Assembly (NCBI GenBank): GCA_028818225.1
Contig: JAPPOG010000003.1
Coordinates: forward strand, 24,572 to 88,571
Direction: 5' to 3'
DNA from: Gammaproteobacteria bacterium
Lineage (GTDB): Bacteria; Pseudomonadota; Gammaproteobacteria; Pseudomonadales; Pseudohongiellaceae
Length of the DNA stretch: 64,000 nucleotides
This document shows, one piece after another, positions 5,495 through 25,404 of the stretch. The notes under the pieces are model-generated. The model saw only the letters and a list, made by a program, of their open reading frames with translations, did not search any database and was not told the origin of the DNA. Every line of letters begins with the position of its first letter. The stretch's first letter is position 1. Both the position numbers and the translations under genes were made by a program.

Positions 5495-6472
5495 ATGACA
5501 AGAATACGGCTTACTCTGCTGATTGTGCTCACCGCACTGAGCTCAATCGCCCTGGCACAGGCAGTTGAAGTACCGCGCACAGAATATGGTCATCCTGACT
5601 TGCAGGGCACCTATACTTTCCGCACCATCACGCCATTGCAACGACCGGCGGAGTTGGCAGACAAGCCAACCCTCACGCGGGAAGAAGCCGCGGAATGGGC
5701 GGCTTTTGAGAATAACCGCCAGAATCGGGATCTTATTATCGACTCGGTAGGCGGTGCCGGCTATCCGCCCGGCGTAATTTCCTATAACGAATTCTGGTAT
5801 GAGCGCGGCACCGACACGGTGGGGGACTTCCGCACTTCACTCATTTACGATCCGCCCAATGGCAGATTGCCGCCCCTGAGCGAAATTGGCAGGGAGCGCG
5901 CTGCCTATACGCAACAAGTCCGAAGAGAAAGCGCCGGACCGGAAGCGCGTACCTTGAACGATCGTTGCATTATTAACAACCGTTCCGGACCACCCATGGT
6001 ATCCGGATCTTATAACAACAATATGCAATTAGTTCAGAATGAAGATTACGTGATGATCATGACGGAAATGGTTCATCACGCGCGTATCATTCCTTTTGCT
6101 GACGAACATGGCAGAGCCCATTCCCAATGGACTGGTCATTCCGTTGCCCGTTGGGAAGGTGACACACTGATAATCAGTACCCAGGATTTTTATCCTGACT
6201 ATGGCTGGCGCAATACTTCTCCACAGATGAAAATCGAAGAGCGCATTAACTGGATTGATGAGAATACCCTCAACTACGAATTCACGGTGGACGATCCCAA
6301 TACCTGGGAAACCACCTGGTCAGCCCGAGTGCCGATGCGCCGCATGGATGATCGAATTTTTGAGTTTGCCTGTCATGAAGGTAATCACGGACTGGCAGGA
6401 ATTTTAGCTGGCTGGCGCCGCTGGGAAATGGAAGGAAAGAATGAAGGGCATATTCCATCGGTTGATGATTAA
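5495..6472 (+). CDS. Secreted protein, unnamed conserved domain (paralogue A of the family also at 31735-33486 and 33562-34392)
   Basis: GGAG lies 6 nt upstream of the ATG. Sec signal 'LLIVLTALSSIALAQA'. Shared motifs with the paralogues: HPDLQGTY, NDRCIINN, GHSVARWEGDTLII, LNYEFTVDDPNTWETTW, FEFACHEGNHG. Confidence 0.85.
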   Translation: MTRIRLTLLIVLTALSSIALAQAVEVPRTEYGHPDLQGTYTFRTITPLQRPAELADKPTLTREEAAEWAAFENNRQNRDLIIDSVGGAGYPPGVISYNEFWYERGTDTVGDFRTSLIYDPPNGRLPPLSEIGRERAAYTQQVRRESAGPEARTLNDRCIINNRSGPPMVSGSYNNNMQLVQNEDYVMIMTEMVHHARIIPFADEHGRAHSQWTGHSVARWEGDTLIISTQDFYPDYGWRNTSPQMKIEERINWIDENTLNYEFTVDDPNTWETTWSARVPMRRMDDRIFEFACHEGNHGLAGILAGWRRWEMEGKNEGHIPSVDD

Positions 6473-13666: not shown

Positions 13667-14677
13667 ATGGAAATATTCGCGACTTTATTTAGTGAAGTTA
13701 TAGGCTTTCTTAGAGTATCCCAGGCCTGGGAAATACTGAGAGCGGGCGATTTTAGTTCCTTCACCACCTATGCAGGCATTCGCGCCTTTATCGTTCCCAT
13801 AATTCCCCTGCTCATAATATTTGAAGCGATTCTGGGATTGGCTTATAAAAACCCCCAGGCCAAAGTTTATAAGATTAATTTTCTGATCTATGTCTTTAAT
13901 CGATTTATCGGAAGATTCATCGCGCTTGGGATGGTAGTTTTCTGCATCGGCTTGTTCCAGGCCTATGCTCCCTTTCAAACAGAATTGACCTGGTACTGGT
14001 TTATCTATGGCTATATTGTTTGGGAGTTCGGACATTTTATTTATCACTACCTTGGACATAAGGTACGTTTGTTCTGGTGTCTGCATTCCACTCATCATGC
14101 TCCGGAAGAAATGAACCTGTCTGTTACCCATGCGCACTTTTTCCTGGAAGCACCTTATGCTGACACCATTCGTACGACTGTATGTATCCTGGCGGGTGTG
14201 CAGCCAGATTTACTCTTCATCATCATGTTCATCGATGGAACCTATGGTGCATTTATTCATATTGGGGAAAACATGATTAAAGATGCACGTTTTGGATTTC
14301 TGAACAAGCTCATGCTGACACCATCACACCATCGAGTTCACCATGCACGCAATTCCTTATATATAGATACCAACTTCTGCAATCTGCTGAATATTTGGGA
14401 TCGGGTATTTGGCACTTATCAAGAAGAACAAAGGGATGTGGAAATCGAGTATGGCATTACTCGCGAAATGGATTCGGGGAACTTCTTCGATGTATATTTT
14501 GGTGAAATAATTTTCCTTGCCAAAGATGTACTCAATGCTCCGGGGCTGGCAAACAAATTTCTCTACTTAATTATGCCGCCGGGATGGCACCATTCTGGAG
14601 ATCACAAAACCGCGAGTAGTATAAGAAAAGCATACCTGCAAAATAGTAGAAACGAGCCCATAGCTGAAAGGATGTAA
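13667..14677 (+). CDS. Fatty acid hydroxylase / sterol desaturase superfamily membrane di-iron enzyme
   Basis: The histidine boxes 'HFIYHYLGH', 'HSTHH' and 'HHRVHH' sit in a multi-TM protein. Confidence 0.85.
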   Translation: MEIFATLFSEVIGFLRVSQAWEILRAGDFSSFTTYAGIRAFIVPIIPLLIIFEAILGLAYKNPQAKVYKINFLIYVFNRFIGRFIALGMVVFCIGLFQAYAPFQTELTWYWFIYGYIVWEFGHFIYHYLGHKVRLFWCLHSTHHAPEEMNLSVTHAHFFLEAPYADTIRTTVCILAGVQPDLLFIIMFIDGTYGAFIHIGENMIKDARFGFLNKLMLTPSHHRVHHARNSLYIDTNFCNLLNIWDRVFGTYQEEQRDVEIEYGITREMDSGNFFDVYFGEIIFLAKDVLNAPGLANKFLYLIMPPGWHHSGDHKTASSIRKAYLQNSRNEPIAERM

Positions 14678-14684
14678 AGACATA

Positions 14685-16238
14685 GTGACTTGGAAAGAAG
14701 AAACAGATGAAATTGTGCGCCGACGGGAGTTAGCGCTTGAGCAGGGTGGCGCGGAATCCATTGCCAAACACCATGGTAAAGGCAAACTCACAATTCGAGA
14801 GCGAATCAACAAATTATTGGATCCGGACAGCTTTGAAGAAGTTGGCCCAACAGCTGGAGCTGGTAATTACGATGAAAACGGTGAGCTCATAAGCCTGGAT
14901 CCAGCTAATTTTGTACTTGGTTTTGGCACAGTAGATGGCCGCAGAATCATTGTGGGTGGTGAAGACTTCACCATGCGTGGTGGTTCACCTTCTCCTGCCG
15001 GTTTGCGTAAAAGTGTCTATGCCGAAGAACTGGCAGTGCAATACAAGCTACCTCTGGTGCGCTTGCATGAAGGCTCTGGCGGCAGTGTAGGTGGCACTGG
15101 GGGCAAAGGTCAGAATTTACCAGGCCCGGTAAATGCTCCCGCCCGCTTTCGTTCTGTAGCGGAAGCAATGGCTACCGTACCGGTTGCTACGGCTGCGCTT
15201 GGCGCAGTCGCTGGATTACCGGCAGGAAGACTGGTTGCCTCCCATTTCTCAGTAATGTCAAAAGCGACAGCCCAAATATTGACGGCCGGTCCTGCCGTGG
15301 TTGAACGAGCCATGGGCGAGAAGAAAACCAAGGAAGAGCTTGGTGGCTGGAAAGTTCATACCAAGAACGGCACTGTTGACAATGGCGCTGAAAATGAAGA
15401 AGCCTGCCTGGCCGAAATTCGTCGTTTTCTTTCTTTTATGCCTGATAATATTGAACAGCTTGCCCCCGTTATCGAATGTGATGATCCCATAGAAAGGACT
15501 GACGAAGCGCTATTAGACATAGTGCCAAAAGATCGAAGACAGGCATTCGATATGCGCCGCATCATTCATACTGTCATGGATGAAAACAGTTTCTTCGAAA
15601 TGGGTGCTGGTTATGGCCGTTCACAAATTACTGGTCTTGCCCGCTTGAATGGACAGGTAGTTGGTGTCTGGGGTAATAATTGCAAATTTCTTGCCGGCTC
15701 CATGACTACAGATGGTGCGCAGAAAGCCCGACGCTTTATGGAACTTTGTGAAACTTTCAGCCTGCCTATTGTGAGTTTGGTAGACGAACCCGGATTCATG
15801 ATCGGCAGCCAGGCAGAACGGGAAGCGACTATTCGCCATGGCACCGCTGCAGTTCTTACTGCAGCTATGACAACTGTGCCATGGGCATCAGTCATGATTC
15901 GCCGCTCATTCGGTGTTGCCCAGGCTGCCCACTATGGCCCTGAAGGGTTTGTACTTGCCTGGCCATCAGCAGAGAGCGGACCATTACCGGTAGAAGGCGG
16001 TGTTGCGGTTGCCTTCCAGAGAGAGATTGCAGCAGCGCCAGACCCCGAAGCGCGAAGAAAAGAGTTGGAAGAAGAACTGGCAGCAAAACAATCACCGTTT
16101 CCGAGAGCAGAGGCATTCGGCGTTCATGATCTTATCGATCCAAGACAAACCAGGCCCGAGCTATGTCGCTGGATTGATCGTATTCAACCCCTACTGCCAG
16201 CATTACTTGGCAAGGCGAATTTTTCCATCCGACCTTAA
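14685..16238 (+). CDS. Acyl-CoA carboxylase carboxyltransferase (beta) subunit
   Basis: 'HGKGKLTIRERINKLLDP', 'GGEDFTMRGGS' and 'ARLNGQVVGVWGNN' follow the PccB/MccB/MmdA-type carboxyltransferase pattern. GTG start 8 nt after the upstream stop. Confidence 0.85.
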   Translation: MTWKEETDEIVRRRELALEQGGAESIAKHHGKGKLTIRERINKLLDPDSFEEVGPTAGAGNYDENGELISLDPANFVLGFGTVDGRRIIVGGEDFTMRGGSPSPAGLRKSVYAEELAVQYKLPLVRLHEGSGGSVGGTGGKGQNLPGPVNAPARFRSVAEAMATVPVATAALGAVAGLPAGRLVASHFSVMSKATAQILTAGPAVVERAMGEKKTKEELGGWKVHTKNGTVDNGAENEEACLAEIRRFLSFMPDNIEQLAPVIECDDPIERTDEALLDIVPKDRRQAFDMRRIIHTVMDENSFFEMGAGYGRSQITGLARLNGQVVGVWGNNCKFLAGSMTTDGAQKARRFMELCETFSLPIVSLVDEPGFMIGSQAEREATIRHGTAAVLTAAMTTVPWASVMIRRSFGVAQAAHYGPEGFVLAWPSAESGPLPVEGGVAVAFQREIAAAPDPEARRKELEEELAAKQSPFPRAEAFGVHDLIDPRQTRPELCRWIDRIQPLLPALLGKANFSIRP

Positions 16239-16256
16239 TTGACAGAAAGCTAAGAG

Positions 16257-16484
16257 GTGGCTCAGGACATGACAAATGTTGAATTAGAAACCGGTGGCTC
16301 AGTTTGGAAAGTGCTGACAAAGGTTGGCGATAAAGTAGCGGCTGGCGATGTGTTATTCATTCTCGAAGTCATGAAAATGGAAGTGCCATATGAAGCTCCT
16401 GTTGCAGGAGAAATTATGGCAGTACATATTGCTGAAGGCGAAGTGGTAGAAGAAGAGCAGGTGGCCATGGAAATTTCAGGCTAG
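16257..16484 (+). CDS. Stand-alone biotin carboxyl carrier (biotinyl/lipoyl) domain protein
   Basis: About 71-75 aa. 'LFILEVMKMEVPYEAPVAGEI' contains the (A/V)MKM biotinyl-lysine motif. The start is either GTG 16257 or in-frame ATG 16269. Confidence 0.8.
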   Translation: MAQDMTNVELETGGSVWKVLTKVGDKVAAGDVLFILEVMKMEVPYEAPVAGEIMAVHIAEGEVVEEEQVAMEISG

Positions 16485-16685
16485 CAATTATCAATGTCTG
16501 AATTTGAAGTCTTGTCAGCTCTCATTTCAATCGTAATTGGCCGGGGCTTAACGCAATTGTTATCCGGATTCGGTAATGCCTTTTATTACCGCAAGACCAA
16601 CAGAATCAATTCGGTGCATAGCGCCCGGAGTTTTGGGTTTCCTCAAATTCCTTGATCTCACTGCCCTGCGGAAATCGCTCGATCC

Positions 16686-17150
16686 CTATAATCTCATAAG
16701 CCGATAAACCGCTGATTCAATTAAGTACTCATCGGCGGCAGAAGAGTTGAAGAATTCTGGATAGCCTGCTGTGTATTTTGCTTCCCAAGCCTGCAGCACC
16801 TCTGCTGTACCTGCACTGACTCTTTCTGCCAGCAAAGGATAAGTTAAGTCTTCGATACGCATATGGATTGGGCCACCATCGCCTAGCATTGAAGTCCAAC
16901 CGTTGGCTCTTGAACCAACAATATACATATCGTTATCGACTTCGACGAACCAGATTATAACAACTCTGGGTATGATCCCTGGCACCCTGATTTTAGTTTC
17001 AAGAATTGAAGACGTGTCAGGCCAGTTTGCTGGTGCGACGCTGGCATTACCGAAAATGAAAAATCCTGGAGTCGTGGTAATGGGTAAACTAAACACCAGC
17101 ACAACAAGTGTTACTACAATAACACCTACTCCAATCTTCAATGCTTTCAC
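16686..17150 (-). CDS. Membrane-anchored hypothetical protein
   Basis: GTG start with AGGAG 7 nt upstream. One N-terminal TM segment 'IGVGVIVVTLVVLVFSL'. No family recognised. Confidence 0.65.
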   Translation of the reverse strand: MKALKIGVGVIVVTLVVLVFSLPITTTPGFFIFGNASVAPANWPDTSSILETKIRVPGIIPRVVIIWFVEVDNDMYIVGSRANGWTSMLGDGGPIHMRIEDLTYPLLAERVSAGTAEVLQAWEAKYTAGYPEFFNSSAADEYLIESAVYRLMRL

Positions 17151-17172
17151 TTCAATTCTCCTTTACCAGTGA

Positions 17173-18030
17173 TTATGAAAACTCACGCTCTTCCCACCAG
17201 GGAAAAAACTCCGGCATGTCTTTACTAACTTGCAATGGAAACTCGGCAGGGCGTTTTTCAAGAAAAGATTCTACCCCCTCTTTTACATCATCGGATTTGC
17301 CGCAGTAATAAATGCCCCGTGAATCCACCTTGTGTGCTTCCATGGGATGATCGGTGCCCAACATCTTCCACAACATCTGCCGAATCAGTGCGACGGAAAC
17401 TGGAGCAGTATTTTCAGCTATTTCCTGAGCGATGGCTTTTGCGGCTGAAAGTAGTTCGTCAGGCTGATGCACACTACGCACCAATCCACCTGCCAGTGCT
17501 TCATCAGCCGGAAACACCCGGCCGCTAAAGCACCACTCCAAGGCCTGACTAATTCCAACGATTTTTGGCAGGAAATAACTGGAGCAGGCTTCGGGGACAA
17601 TGCCGCGGCGAGAGAAAACAAAGCCAATTTTTGCTTCCGTAGAACAAAGCCGAATATCCATTGGCAACAACATGGTGGCACCGATACCAACTGCCGGGCC
17701 GTTGATTGCCGCAATGACTGGTTTCTTGCTTTCAAATATACGGAGCGTTAAGCGGCCGCCGCCATCTCGCTGCAATCCACTTTCACGATCTCCCCGCGCA
17801 TCGGCATTAAACGTATTACCTCCTTCTGCGAGATCGGCACCGGCGCAAAAGCCGCGGCCCGAACCAGTGACGATAATCGCTCGTACATCATCGTCGGCAT
17901 CGGCTCGATCGAATGCATCGATTAACTCTTGCATCATATCGCGGGTAAAGGCATTGAGTTTATCTGGACGATTCAGAGTAATGGTTAGAACCTTGTCTTC
18001 CAGATGGTAGAGGATGGTGGAGTAATCCAT
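17173..18030 (-). CDS. Enoyl-CoA hydratase/isomerase (crotonase) family protein
   Basis: 'ITLNRPDKLNAF' and the oxyanion-hole motif 'GSGRGFCAGADL'. The start is trimmed to ATG 18030 (GGAG 6 nt upstream) from the track's GTG at 18093. Confidence 0.85.
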   Translation of the reverse strand: MDYSTILYHLEDKVLTITLNRPDKLNAFTRDMMQELIDAFDRADADDDVRAIIVTGSGRGFCAGADLAEGGNTFNADARGDRESGLQRDGGGRLTLRIFESKKPVIAAINGPAVGIGATMLLPMDIRLCSTEAKIGFVFSRRGIVPEACSSYFLPKIVGISQALEWCFSGRVFPADEALAGGLVRSVHQPDELLSAAKAIAQEIAENTAPVSVALIRQMLWKMLGTDHPMEAHKVDSRGIYYCGKSDDVKEGVESFLEKRPAEFPLQVSKDMPEFFPWWEEREFS

Positions 18031-18182
18031 GAACAGCTCCAAATTGCTTGTCTGAGTGATATATCGATCCTTTATGGTGCCCCAGGGAAGCACTAACTGC
18101 CAGTTATGCCCATCGAGATGTCTCCGGGAGCAGCAAAACCGGATTCCTTTATATTGAATTCTTCAGTCTCAATCCGCGCCTG

Positions 18183-18198
18183 ATTGATCTAGATCAAT
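18183..18198. promoter_or_regulatory. Perfect 16-bp palindrome in a divergent promoter region
   Basis: ATTGATCT|AGATCAAT at 18183-18198, between the crotonase start (18030, -) and the start of the heme/copper fusion gene (18330, +). Confidence 0.35.
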
Positions 18199-18329
18199 TT
18201 CTTTTGCCTTCGATTAGAACAAAGTAGAAGTTGCGGTAAAAAGTCCTGAATCCTTTGATATTACTGGAATAGATGACCATTCAGGGCGTTTTTTGGGGAA
18301 CTACAGCGATTCCTGTTTGGGGGAAAATT

Positions 18330-20045
18330 ATGCATAAATTTGTCATTGGATTATTAACAGTCTGCTTACCTTCGCTTGCCGGTGCGGTGGAGCGAGTGGG
18401 CGACTTTACCCTGTTAGACCAACACGGGGATGCCCACTCCATGAGTTGGTATGATGACCAGCAGGCAGTAGTCTTCCTGACCCAAGCCAATAATTGCGCG
18501 GCTAATCAAGCTGCCGCATTGGAGTTTGAAGCAGTTCGGTCTCGCTATGCTAATGCCAATATGCAGTTCATGTTGTTGAATGCGGAAGGTAACCGGGATC
18601 GCAGCGCGGTTGCAGCAGCAGCGACCAGCTATGGTACCGATCTGCCGGTATTAATGGATGAATCCCAGACCATCTCCCAGGCCATGGAAATTGCCCAGGC
18701 AGGCGAAGCCATTATTTTCGACCCCAGGTCATTCCAGATCAAATATCGAGGACCCGTTGCCAATCACCTCGCCGCGGCACTCGATCAAATTACTGCCGGT
18801 GAAGAAGTATCTAACCCAGTGCTTGCTGTAAGTGGTTGTGAAATCGCCTATGAAATGACCAGTGAGACAACTATTTCTTACGCTGAAGATATCGCTCCTC
18901 TACTTGCCGAAAATTGCGCGACCTGCCACCGGGAAAAGGGTATCGCCCCTTTCGCCCTGAATAACTATCAATCGGTGCAGGGCTGGTCCCCAATGATCAG
19001 GGAAGTCGTCATGACCCGACGCATGCCTCCAGGTCAAATCGATCATCAGGTTGGCAAATTCGATGGCGCACCGGGGATGACCAACCTGGAAATTCAAAAG
19101 CTTATGAATTGGATAGAAGCTGGCTCAAACAACCAATCAAACAGCGATCCCCTTACCCAATTAAGTTGGCCCGAAAGCAAGTGGACACTGGGTGAGCCTG
19201 ACCTGGTTGTGAAAATTCCAGCGCAACAAATCCCAGCAACCGGTGTGTTAGATTACCGTAATCTTGCAGTTCCGCTTACTGAGCTAACCGAATCCCGCTG
19301 GGTTAGAGGCAGTGAAGTCTCTCCTGGCGATCCAACGGTGGTGCATCACGTAATTCCTTCAGTAATACCGCCTGCCGGTGGTGAGGCGCGCGGTGAAGGT
19401 CGCAATAGTGTGCTGGATTTGAATCCCGAGGTACCTACCCTTGCCGGCTATGCACCAGGTTATTTAAATCGCATACAAGATGAGAATACCGGTGCTTTGC
19501 TCGAAGCCGGTTCAACCATCGTATTCCAGATGCACTACACCACTTCAGGTAAAGAGACAGTGGATGAAACGGAGCTGGGAATTTATTTCTATCCCGAAGG
19601 TGTGATTCCGGAAGAAAGAATTTCCGGAAGACCTGCGGTGAGCTGGGATATCAATATACCGCCGGGCGCAAAGGACCATCCCATGTCAGCCAGCCTGGTA
19701 TTAGACAGAGATGTATACCTGCAAAGTGTATTACCGCACATGCACTTTCGCGGCAAGCGGGTGAAATACATTGCGCAATTACCGGATGGAACCGAGCAAC
19801 TTTTATTTAACCAGCCTCATTACAATTTCAACTGGCAGTTAACATACCATTTTGAAGAGCCTGTATTCTTACCGGAAGGAACTGCTATTCTGGTAGACGG
19901 TAGCTTTGACAATTCGGCCCAGAATCCATTCAACCCTGATCCATCGATAAGCGTTTATGGTGGCGAGCAGAGTTGGGAAGAAATGTTCTTCGGATTCATG
20001 ACCTGGAAAGATGCCGACCAGAGTCAGTGGGCAGTAAATAAGTAA
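18330..20045 (+). CDS. Secreted fusion: degenerate thioredoxin/redoxin-like domain + c-type heme motif + PHM/DBH-like copper monooxygenase domain
   Basis: ATG 18330 has GGGGGA 6 nt upstream and gives the signal 'FVIGLLTVCLPSLAGA'. The N-terminal AhpC/redoxin-like region has a single Cys ('QANNCAANQ'). 'CATCH' is at nt 18915-18929, followed by 'RRMPP'. His-His is at 19344-19349, His at 19533, His-x-His at 19737-19745, and 'WEEMFF' Met at 19983. Confidence 0.8.
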   Translation: MHKFVIGLLTVCLPSLAGAVERVGDFTLLDQHGDAHSMSWYDDQQAVVFLTQANNCAANQAAALEFEAVRSRYANANMQFMLLNAEGNRDRSAVAAAATSYGTDLPVLMDESQTISQAMEIAQAGEAIIFDPRSFQIKYRGPVANHLAAALDQITAGEEVSNPVLAVSGCEIAYEMTSETTISYAEDIAPLLAENCATCHREKGIAPFALNNYQSVQGWSPMIREVVMTRRMPPGQIDHQVGKFDGAPGMTNLEIQKLMNWIEAGSNNQSNSDPLTQLSWPESKWTLGEPDLVVKIPAQQIPATGVLDYRNLAVPLTELTESRWVRGSEVSPGDPTVVHHVIPSVIPPAGGEARGEGRNSVLDLNPEVPTLAGYAPGYLNRIQDENTGALLEAGSTIVFQMHYTTSGKETVDETELGIYFYPEGVIPEERISGRPAVSWDINIPPGAKDHPMSASLVLDRDVYLQSVLPHMHFRGKRVKYIAQLPDGTEQLLFNQPHYNFNWQLTYHFEEPVFLPEGTAILVDGSFDNSAQNPFNPDPSISVYGGEQSWEEMFFGFMTWKDADQSQWAVNK

Positions 20046-20074
20046 ACCAAAAAAAATAATAAACAGGTATCGAA

Positions 20075-20104
20075 GGGCCTGGTCTTGCGACCAGGCCCTT
20101 TTTT
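20075..20104 (+). terminator. Rho-independent terminator
   Basis: Perfect 10-bp GC-rich stem GGGCCTGGTC / GACCAGGCCC (20075-20084 / 20089-20098), loop TTGC, then TTTTTT (20099-20104). It lies 30 nt after the stop at 20045. Confidence 0.85.
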
Positions 20105-24382: not shown

Positions 24383-25404
24383 TAGTCTAACTGATCCACT
24401 ACATCTGCTTCGGTAAAAATTTCTGTACCCTCTCCACCCGCTTCACCGACCCGAATCTCATCCCCAATAAAAAGGGTCATCAAATCTTCAGCCACTAACA
24501 TTGGCCCATTGTAATCTGTCGCTTCAAGTATTTCATCGGAAGTGAGTTCCGGCGGAATGATATGTGAATAGACGCCAAGTCGCGGTCGAGTCTGTCTAAA
24601 TACTTCGGCAACCTGGGCAGGTGTGGAATGAACCGACAAGCTGACATTGGCAAGTTGTGCTTCCGGCGAATTTCCGGGAGCAGGTACCTGAACTTCATGA
24701 ATCAACACATCAACCTCGGCACCCTGTTCGATAATGCTTGAGGCCTCTGTTGATCGTGTATCTCCAGAAAAAACCACGCTTCGTCCAGCATAATCGATTC
24801 TAAAACCCAGGGTGCTTCCTTCTAATCCTAATAGCTCTCCGGTACTGACGTCTATTGGCATATGCTCTACAGAAAAAGCTGTTATCTTAAGTCCATCATT
24901 ATCATAAAAAACGCCAGAGCTGACATCTTCCGCAATCAGATCGGAACCTTCTTCATGAACGCCAACAATTTCCCGATAGCGTATATCCCAGGCATAGGCT
25001 GACTCAAAATTTTCCATCATTGCGGTCGTACCTTCCGGTCCGTATACATACATTGGAAACTTTCGACCATAGAGCCACCCACTCAACCACAAGCCGGGCA
25101 CACTGATGGTATGGTCGAAGTGTAAGTGAGTGAGGATGATCATATTTATATCAGTAAGTAATTCAAATCCTCCTGCCTGAAACAGACGCTCTCGCATTCC
25201 AGGCCCAGCATCCACCAGCAAGCGGTGACTGCCTGCTTCTACTAATATTGAGGGACCATAACGATCAAGGGATGGTCGGGGTGCTCCGGTCCCCAGGAAA
25301 GTGAGTTTAATCACTTCTTCTTCAGCAGCAAGAGTAGTACTGGGTGCTGGCATCCACAGCACAGCAACTAATGCTAGTTGTAGCCTTAATCTCATAGTAC
25401 CCAT
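24382..25404 (-). CDS. Secreted metallo-beta-lactamase-fold hydrolase
   Basis: 'IILTHLHFDHT' is the HxHxDH motif, with later 'FSGDT' and 'LIHEV'. A hydrophobic signal follows ATG 25404. The track start is TTG 25440. Confidence 0.8.
   Translation of the reverse strand: MGTMRLRLQLALVAVLWMPAPSTTLAAEEEVIKLTFLGTGAPRPSLDRYGPSILVEAGSHRLLVDAGPGMRERLFQAGGFELLTDINMIILTHLHFDHTISVPGLWLSGWLYGRKFPMYVYGPEGTTAMMENFESAYAWDIRYREIVGVHEEGSDLIAEDVSSGVFYDNDGLKITAFSVEHMPIDVSTGELLGLEGSTLGFRIDYAGRSVVFSGDTRSTEASSIIEQGAEVDVLIHEVQVPAPGNSPEAQLANVSLSVHSTPAQVAEVFRQTRPRLGVYSHIIPPELTSDEILEATDYNGPMLVAEDLMTLFIGDEIRVGEAGGEGTEIFTEADVVDQLD

Follow-up and report, generated by a model that had tools for sequence, protein, structure and literature searches.

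The copper enzymes of animal peptide hormone and noradrenaline synthesis, peptidylglycine alpha-hydroxylating monooxygenase (PHM) and dopamine beta-hydroxylase (DBH), are textbook proteins and are treated as eukaryotic. Enzymes of this class bind two copper ions about 11 Å apart and hydroxylate their substrates with O2 and ascorbate. The copper ligands of PHM are, in the established numbering, H107, H108 and H172 (CuH site) and H242, H244 and M314 (CuM site); they are spaced by 64, 70 and 70 residues, and the C-terminal carboxylate of the substrate is held by R240, N316 and Y318. In this study, a bacterial gene for a protein with a PHM/DBH-like copper core was analysed. It lies on the + strand at positions 18330-20045 of a 64,000-nucleotide (nt) window (the whole stretch of DNA that was analysed, i.e. 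positions 24,572 to 88,571 of contig JAPPOG010000003.1, assembly GCA_028818225.1) from a gammaproteobacterium of the Pseudohongiellaceae. Its 571-amino acid (aa) product is read here, with moderate confidence, as a periplasmic metalloenzyme of three domains, namely a haem-fed copper monooxygenase of the PHM/DBH type.

A review of metalloproteomes places PHM and DBM under eukaryotes only (PMC7435645), the terms "bacteria" and "prokaryot" do not occur in a review of the evolution of PAM (PMC6529398), and a mechanistic review from 2025 mentions bacteria only with regard to antibiotics (PMC12164859). A full-text literature search, in which subscription journals are thinly covered, turned up no publication dealing with a PHM-like or cytochrome-fused enzyme from bacteria, and no bacterial protein matched the copper core among the 50 Foldseek matches listed (PDB to April 2026). 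This agrees with the initial annotation of the locus, in which the architecture was regarded as uncharacterised in bacteria.

The same annotation had proposed that HH plus H and HxH plus Met in this protein resemble the CuH and CuM sites of PHM, in a region (residues ~300-571) related to the copper type II monooxygenase fold. The motifs named in it (CATCH at 196-200, RRMPP at 230-234, H339/H340, H402, H470/H472, and M552 in WEEMFF) were checked with a script and occupy exactly these residues, and the fold was recovered by structure comparison (Foldseek), profile search (hmmsearch) and profile-profile alignment (hhalign). An AlphaFold2 model, built on an alignment of 30 sequences, had a mean predicted local distance difference test score (pLDDT) of 80.8 and a predicted TM-score of 0.79. 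The best 29 PDB matches of this model in Foldseek were entries of rat PHM and one chain of human DBH, with E-values from 2.9e-12 to 1.5e-8, a probability of 1.00, about 300 aligned columns and 15-19% identity. The DBH chain (4zel_B) was the third-best match (E-value of 7.5e-12), and the TM-scores of the top PHM/DBH matches, normalised to the target, were 0.59-0.60. Thioredoxin-fold proteins, covering the N-terminal domain, ranked after them.

A sequence profile of the copper core found rat PHM (1yjk, 1opm, 1phm and others) among the PDB sequences with an E-value of 1.9e-7, and in this alignment HH, HY and HMH of the family fell on VHHML, QVHYG and HTH of PHM, respectively. Human DBH (4zel; E-value of 6.5e-5) was found with a diverse full-length profile, and it was the only non-redoxin family matched by this profile, besides a short match to the haem motif. 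For the profile-profile alignment, the PHM segment was rebuilt from the hmmsearch output and used to collect animal PHMs, of which 20 were aligned. The core of the family matched these 20 sequences with a probability of 97.6% and an E-value of 4.6e-12 over 239 columns, pairing (family/PHM) VvHH with vHHM, fQmHYT with LQVHY, PHMHfRGK with RtHTHhLGK, and G.QSwDEMf with GgTssDEMC. All six copper ligands are thus in register with H107, H108, H172, H242, H244 and M314 of PHM, and they are spaced by 62, 68 and 80 residues in the 571-aa protein. The alignment of the Met was settled by hhalign, since searching the PDB with a profile restricted to the last 114 residues gave no match. Both the architecture of the protein and the homology to PHM/DBH are considered very probable, and the proposed likeness to the CuH and CuM sites is borne out at the level of fold and ligands.

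The putative haem and copper ligands are nearly invariant in the family. In an alignment of 208 relatives, the six copper ligands, the CxxCH motif and M232 are each present in 206-208 sequences (H339 and H402 in all 208, H340 in 207, the CuM ligands in 206-207 and CxxCH in 207), and R474, located two residues after H472, and E551 have no exception. The ten residues C196, C199, H200, M232, H339, H340, H402, H470, H472 and M552 do not vary at all in 30 relatives of 48-83% identity, nor in 41 more distant ones (29-46% identity); in the alignment of the latter, R474, E551, W502, Q503, D527, N528, S529, N532, N535 and P536 are invariant as well.

The copper core is preceded by a mono-haem c-type cytochrome domain. 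The CATCH motif (nt 18915-18929) would provide C196 and C199 for haem attachment and H200 as the proximal ligand, while M232 of RRMPP (nt 19023-19025), within an MPP motif 32 residues beyond the haem site, is the probable distal ligand, judged by its conservation. A c-type haem site followed by RRMPP had been noticed in the initial annotation, and this assignment gains from the relatives, as C196, C199, H200, M232, P233 and P234 are invariant both in the 30 closer sequences and in the 41 more distant ones. The haem region is helical in the AlphaFold2 model. Pfam model Cytochrom_C (PF00034) matched residues 191-263 below its threshold (E-value of 0.008, 17.9 bits against a cut-off of 21.3). Among the 30 relatives, 27 matched Cytochrome_CBB3 (PF13442; best E-value of 2.1e-6) and 18 matched Cytochrom_C. 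Axial ligation by His and Met is typical of electron-transfer haems, and the conserved His200/Met232 pattern suggests a haem of this kind rather than a catalytic one.

The N-terminal domain has a thioredoxin fold. It passes the threshold of Pfam model AhpC-TSA (PF00578; residues 23-135, E-value of 5.4e-8, 33.3 bits against a cut-off of 26), its matches among PDB sequences are 2cvb, 3u5r and 2ywi (a subfamily reached with an E-value of 9.4e-21 by the diverse family profile), and Foldseek also aligned it with 3u5r, 2ywi and ResA. The initial annotation had described a redoxin-like domain which has lost its CxxC motif and retains a single Cys. The loss was confirmed, since A53 stands where CNHC of 2cvb has its first Cys, none of the 208 aligned relatives has Cys at this position (A, G, S, D or V being found instead) and CxxC is absent from the redoxin domain of all 30 relatives of 48-83% identity. 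The count of one Cys was not, as the residue in QANNCAANQ (C56, nt 18495-18497), i.e. the second Cys of the former CxxC, is accompanied by C170 (nt 18837-18839) in a "GC" motif of the C-terminal extension, which also occurs in 2cvb, 3u5r and 2ywi. The two residues co-vary: among the 208 relatives both are present in 74, neither in 125 and just one in 9. In the periplasm, this co-variation is most simply explained by a structural disulfide, which is likely to be formed in roughly one in three family members, the 571-aa protein among them, but which would not bring back a normal site of thiol-disulfide exchange. Such exchange is unlikely because the nucleophilic Cys is lost and only the co-varying C56 and C170 survive. 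The domain resembles TlpA/ResA/CcmG-type oxidoreductases and the 2CVB/3U5R/2YWI subfamily in the fold and sequence of residues 22-175 and in the extension with "GC", but differs from them in the replaced nucleophilic Cys of CxxC; it probably has a structural, docking or substrate-binding role.

The features of the locus are collected in Table 1. The coding sequence is uninterrupted in translation. An in-frame ATG at position 18273 would give a longer open reading frame (ORF) with 19 additional residues; this start was discarded, as the homologues, both close and distant, all begin at the position equivalent to 18330. The N-terminus has a basic start followed by a hydrophobic stretch and AGA, and reads MHKFVIGLLTVCLPSLAGA before VE; the N-termini of aligned homologues are all similarly hydrophobic, and residues 1-20 are disordered in the AlphaFold2 model (pLDDT <50). 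The protein, which contains five Cys in total, is thus predicted to be exported by the Sec pathway to the periplasm. In c-type cytochromes haem is attached in the periplasm by the Ccm system, and the signal peptide fits such maturation.

Table 1. Features of the haem-copper gene and its flanks (positions within the 64,000-nt window).
Feature	Position	Strand	Remarks
16-bp perfect palindrome ATTGATCTAGATCAAT	18183..18198		contains TTGAT-N4-ATCAA at 18184-18197
Coding sequence, 571 aa + stop	18330..20045	+	signal peptide, thioredoxin-fold domain, cytochrome c domain, PHM/DBH-like copper core
Predicted Sec signal peptide, residues 1-19, MHKFVIGLLTVCLPSLAGA	18330..18386	+	read from sequence, likely cleavage after AGA
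Thioredoxin-fold (AhpC-TSA/TlpA/ResA-like) domain, residues 22-175	18393..18854	+	Pfam, PDB sequence search, Foldseek
Mono-haem c-type cytochrome domain, residues ~184-266	18879..19127	+	CxxCH, Pfam matches in relatives, helical model
PHM-like N-terminal beta-sandwich subdomain, CuH-type site	19182..19604	+	H339/H340 (nt 19344-19349), H402 (nt 19533-19535)
PHM-like C-terminal beta-sandwich subdomain, CuM-type site	19605..20024	+	H470/H472 (nt 19737-19745), M552 (nt 19983-19985)
Intrinsic terminator, GC-rich hairpin + U run	20072..20104	+	27 nt past the stop codon

Compared with PHM, the catalytic core of animal PAM (1PHM, 1OPM, 3MIH), the protein shares the beta-sandwich fold of two subdomains, all six copper ligands (including the S-x-(D/E)-E-M context of the Met) with similar spacings, and a location outside the cytoplasm, which is the secretory lumen in animals and, by prediction, the periplasm here. 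The differences are considerable. Identity is only 16-18%, the protein has a thioredoxin fold as an additional domain, there is no gene for a PAL lyase partner in the vicinity, and the electron source is apparently the fused haem c and not ascorbate. None of the cysteines that form the invariant disulfides of PHM (C37, C70, C82, C87, C183, C249 and C271) is found among the five Cys of this protein. R240, N316 and Y318, invariant in the 20 PHMs, correspond here to positions 468, 554 and 556, which are occupied in the 208 relatives by L/M/T/S, F/I/M and F/A/Y, respectively, Arg never being found at 468 among the residues tallied. As the equivalents of these three residues are not conserved, a glycine-extended peptide is probably not the substrate. 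The absence of the peptide-carboxylate anchors, together with the presence of several diverged paralogues per genome (see below), points instead to what is probably a small organic molecule or a polymer met in the periplasm. The protein belongs to the PHM/DBH superfamily, as judged by fold and sequence comparison, but is not an orthologue of PHM or DBH; it was filed at the level of superfamily, with a different substrate expected, because the PHM anchors are lost, Pfam model PF01082 is unmatched and the family has a polar cluster of its own.

Haem-fed copper enzymes are known from other folds: the cytochrome domain of cellobiose dehydrogenase serves lytic polysaccharide monooxygenases (LPMOs), and cytochrome c is fused to the copper nitrite reductase NirK and found in cNosZ. 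By analogy with these systems, the haem domain of the present protein may act as a one-electron donor to an extracytoplasmic copper site. Their copper folds (histidine brace, cupredoxin type 1/type 2 and CuZ, respectively) and chemistries are nevertheless unrelated, and no homology of the PHM-like core to the copper folds of LPMO, NirK or cNosZ was seen. The catalytic core is of the type found in DBH, tyramine beta-monooxygenase and MOXD (4ZEL), and as in DBH it is joined to an additional N-terminal domain. DBH, however, carries DOMON and dimerisation domains and uses ascorbate (PMC12164859); the partners of the core in the present protein are a thioredoxin fold and a c-type cytochrome.

These comparisons suggest the following scheme, in which we infer the metal loading, the direction of electron flow, the O2 chemistry and the class of substrate; the export signal, the domain folds, the homology, and the alignment and conservation of the ligands come from the analyses given above. 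Respiratory carriers in the periplasm, or another c-type cytochrome, would reduce the built-in haem, and the haem would pass single electrons to CuH, replacing the ascorbate or cytochrome b561 of the animal enzymes. CuH would then reduce CuM, and O2 activated at CuM would abstract a hydrogen atom, so that a C-H bond of the substrate would be hydroxylated. The catalytic core would be formed by a complete CuH site (H339, H340 and H402) and a complete CuM site (H470, H472 and M552). That the chemistry is indeed that of a monooxygenase is given somewhat better than even confidence.

The protein has numerous relatives. More than 2,900 were recognised among the candidates scored from a collection of 5.8 billion proteins, mostly in metagenome-assembled genomes (MAGs) of marine and freshwater Gammaproteobacteria (Pseudomonadales, Pseudohongiellaceae, SAR86), and they are named "redoxin domain-containing protein", "peroxiredoxin", "mono/diheme cytochrome c family protein" or "hypothetical protein" in databases, ten distant ones being named merely "cytochrome c" or "hypothetical protein". 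The size of the family was estimated by searching 1.84 billion representatives at 50% identity with a profile built from the last 290 residues; this profile matched 10,777 clusters at an E-value of <=1e-3, 6,536 at <=1e-10 and 2,012 at <=1e-30. In 126 of the 150 best-scoring representatives, CxxCH is found ~143 residues before HH. Among these, ~96 have an N-terminal redoxin-like region of 150-250 residues, 19 (~430 aa) lack it and 21 have longer N-termini. As the distance from CxxCH to HH is kept while the N-terminal domain varies, the haem c and copper core together constitute the conserved unit of the family in sequence terms, and the thioredoxin-fold domain is a frequent accessory which is variable or absent.

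Several other architectures were noted (proteins P0123, P0182, P0214, P0169, P0173 and P0165). In these, the haem-copper module stands without the redoxin domain (~430 aa), is part of a complete tandem duplicate of the three-domain unit (1,251 aa), follows a BlaR1-type M56 membrane domain in a protein that also has a CBM48 at its C-terminus, follows TPR repeats, or precedes Ig-like/He_PIG domains. A subfamily of 613-630 aa (P0026, P0029, P0056, P0070, P0100, P0101, P0105 and P0109) has an insertion of ~45 residues just after HH (alignment columns ~375-420, e.g. LPEERAQEVRTTLFAAAASGQEP), which the 571-aa protein does not have. Two or three paralogues that have diverged from one another are present at unlinked loci (L007/L067, L028/L032/L037, L045/L060/L065 and L006/L072) in several genomes, most of them MAGs of Pseudohongiella and other Pseudomonadales, and a MAG with a 90%-identical orthologue also carries a paralogue of 46% identity. 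This multiplicity suggests diversification of substrates.

Upstream of the gene (13667-18093), the + strand carries genes for a fatty-acid hydroxylase family protein, an acyl-CoA carboxyltransferase and a biotin carrier of 75 aa, followed on the - strand by an ORF of 154 aa that has no annotation and an enoyl-CoA hydratase gene; the downstream neighbours encode a RimK-like ATP-grasp protein, a TPR protein and an SNF transporter. A strong terminator after the gene, noticed in the initial annotation, was confirmed by a hairpin with a 13-bp stem (20072-20101), a U run and a fold energy of -25.6 kcal/mol (z = -4.9; 0 of 200 shuffled sequences folded equally well). The neighbours differ beside an 82%-identical orthologue and a 48%-identical relative (four loci of the two homologues), the upstream group of lipid/acyl-CoA genes is not conserved beside homologues, and all-against-all clustering of the ORFs from 84 loci and the window revealed no conserved partner gene. 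A ferrochelatase recurs in 28 of the 84 loci (L004 2352-3395 and equivalents), ~6-7 kb upstream of one paralogue group found mostly in Pseudohongiella genomes, and a PTP-like protein recurs in 25. Both were considered as functional partners and rejected, being judged lineage synteny mostly within Pseudohongiella with no operon; the ferrochelatase probably reflects such synteny rather than a link to the haem domain.

The context had been described as giving no clue to the substrate. This holds, in the absence of conserved neighbours, but the context does hint at regulation, as the 16-bp palindrome reported upstream is present and contains TTGAT-N4-ATCAA, the consensus of FNR/ANR/FixK/Dnr regulators. 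This box lies 133-146 nt upstream of the ATG and is the sole perfect match in the window. Related boxes precede two close orthologues, TTGACATAGGTCAT in locus L001 (9858-9871, ~143 nt before the ATG) and TTGATATAGGTCAT in L005 (~5834-5847, ~160 nt). At both loci the intergenic region has diverged except for a conserved island, of which the box is the core. This island belongs to the haem-copper gene, since the upstream gene in L001 is co-directional. A conserved CA(A/C)AGTAGA(A/G)G block, ~22 nt downstream of the box, could hold a -10 element. FNR-like boxes with at most two mismatches occurred in 20 of 83 upstream regions, against ~10 expected, at scattered positions; the box was discarded as a family-wide feature and is restricted to close orthologues. 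Its sequence suggests clade-specific, oxygen-responsive control by an FNR-type regulator.

Several observations weigh against a haem-fed copper monooxygenase. Of the Pfam models whose use had been proposed in the initial annotation, AhpC-TSA matched the 571-aa protein and Cytochrom_C stayed below its threshold, as did Cu2_monoox_C (PF03712; residues 460-557, E-value of 0.0038, 17.1 bits against 23), while Cu2_monooxygen (PF01082) matched neither this protein (E-values up to 10) nor any of the 30 relatives. No neighbouring gene in the window or the homologue loci indicates a substrate. The FNR-type box hints at low-oxygen control, which would be odd for an O2-consuming monooxygenase, though the two are not mutually exclusive. 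Finally, the invariant polar cluster of the CuM subdomain (R474, NWQ and DNS..N..NPDP) has no counterpart in PHM; it could mean a small inorganic or common polar substrate and not C-H hydroxylation.

The Pfam results bear on the alternative that the His/Met/CxxCH pattern is a chance likeness in an ordinary redoxin-domain protein. From its own sequence alone, the copper and haem assignments are no more than suggestive, since the Pfam matches are sub-threshold and a PDB sequence search with the single protein or a profile of close homologues returned thioredoxin-fold proteins only and no PHM. The database names (redoxin, peroxiredoxin, hypothetical) and the lack of any model in an NCBIfam scan of the protein point the same way. 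Chance resemblance is nonetheless excluded by the significant Foldseek, hmmsearch and hhalign matches to PHM/DBH, with ligands in register and invariant; in addition, 22 of the 30 relatives match Cu2_monoox_C individually (best E-value of 5.4e-6) and three distant relatives pass its gathering score (24.6-31.6 bits). The main rival, which we consider unlikely, is a cytochrome-c-dependent periplasmic oxidase or peroxidase, scavenging O2, H2O2 or superoxide with no organic substrate; electrons would pass from the cytochrome c pool through haem to copper, and the thioredoxin/peroxiredoxin-like domain would be left over from an ancestor with an antioxidant function. Regulators of the FNR/ANR type are activators of high-affinity oxidases and of periplasmic cytochrome c peroxidases such as YhjA of E. 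coli and CcpR of Pseudomonas, and the perfect box upstream, kept in orthologues, suits such an enzyme, as do the AhpC/TSA score of the N-terminal domain, the lack of substrate-related neighbours, and the invariant polar residues near CuM, common to all paralogues as if they shared one small substrate. However, the box is confined to close orthologues, the peroxidatic/nucleophilic Cys is missing in all 208 relatives, so that the domain cannot work as a peroxiredoxin, and several diverged paralogues per genome are hard to square with one scavenging function. Moreover, PHM-type sites are known to couple O2 reduction tightly to substrate hydroxylation (PMC9064607).

Two further readings are still less probable. 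The protein might be a reductase that acts on a small oxyanion or gas of nitrogen or sulphur (such as nitrite or NO) and uses the His2Met copper, with electrons from the fused cytochrome c, in analogy to NirK and cNosZ; we regard this as improbable. TTGAT-N4-ATCAA is also the type of box used by Dnr/NnrR, the invariant R474 beside the CuM His pair could bind an anion, and PDB contains entries whose titles name PHM with nitrite and azide bound (3mib, 3mlk and 3mih), but there are no denitrification genes nearby (window and four homologue loci), and the family is found, often in multiple copies, in MAGs with the labels SAR86 and Pseudohongiella, groups that live mainly as aerobic heterotrophs. 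We also know of no nitrite reductase with a PHM-like fold. Slightly more doubtful again is a non-catalytic role, with the PHM fold serving periplasmic copper binding and buffering or as a pure electron shuttle. No activity is known for the family, and copper chaperones such as Sco also have a thioredoxin fold; against this, buffering needs no fixed haem-Cu-Cu chain, and both sites, a dedicated haem and many residues of the second shell are almost fully conserved across ~10,000 clusters, as is typical of an enzyme active site. The haem-fed copper monooxygenase thus remains our preferred reading.

The protein is an uncharacterised variant within a known kind of enzyme and not a categorically new system, and its combination of domains is latent in databases, where members are already visible as Pfam Cu2_monoox_C matches. 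For thousands of these database entries, the names "redoxin domain-containing protein" and "peroxiredoxin" are misleading. Tentatively, and at somewhat less than even confidence, the family may represent a large unrecognised prokaryotic branch of the non-coupled binuclear PHM/DBH enzymes (~10,800 clusters), in which a fused cytochrome c replaces ascorbate and connects the respiratory chain with the copper sites for the oxidation of periplasmic organic compounds, and which is possibly ancestral to the eukaryotic enzymes. If so, the bacterial family, with its full set of ligands and built-in haem c donor, would be larger than the eukaryotic one, and a soluble bacterial system would be at hand in which the long-debated CuH-to-CuM electron transfer could be triggered and followed optically via the haem. 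The enzymes of this branch would carry out hydroxylation or oxidative dealkylation in heterotrophs that abound in aquatic habitats (MAGs labelled Pseudohongiella, SAR86 and Verrucomicrobiota), as candidates for an unaccounted O2-dependent oxidation step in the periplasm of these common bacteria. The prokaryotic branch may also be the ancestral stock of the eukaryotic hormone- and neurotransmitter-making enzymes, in which case the origin of peptide amidation and catecholamine hydroxylation would shift to prokaryotes.

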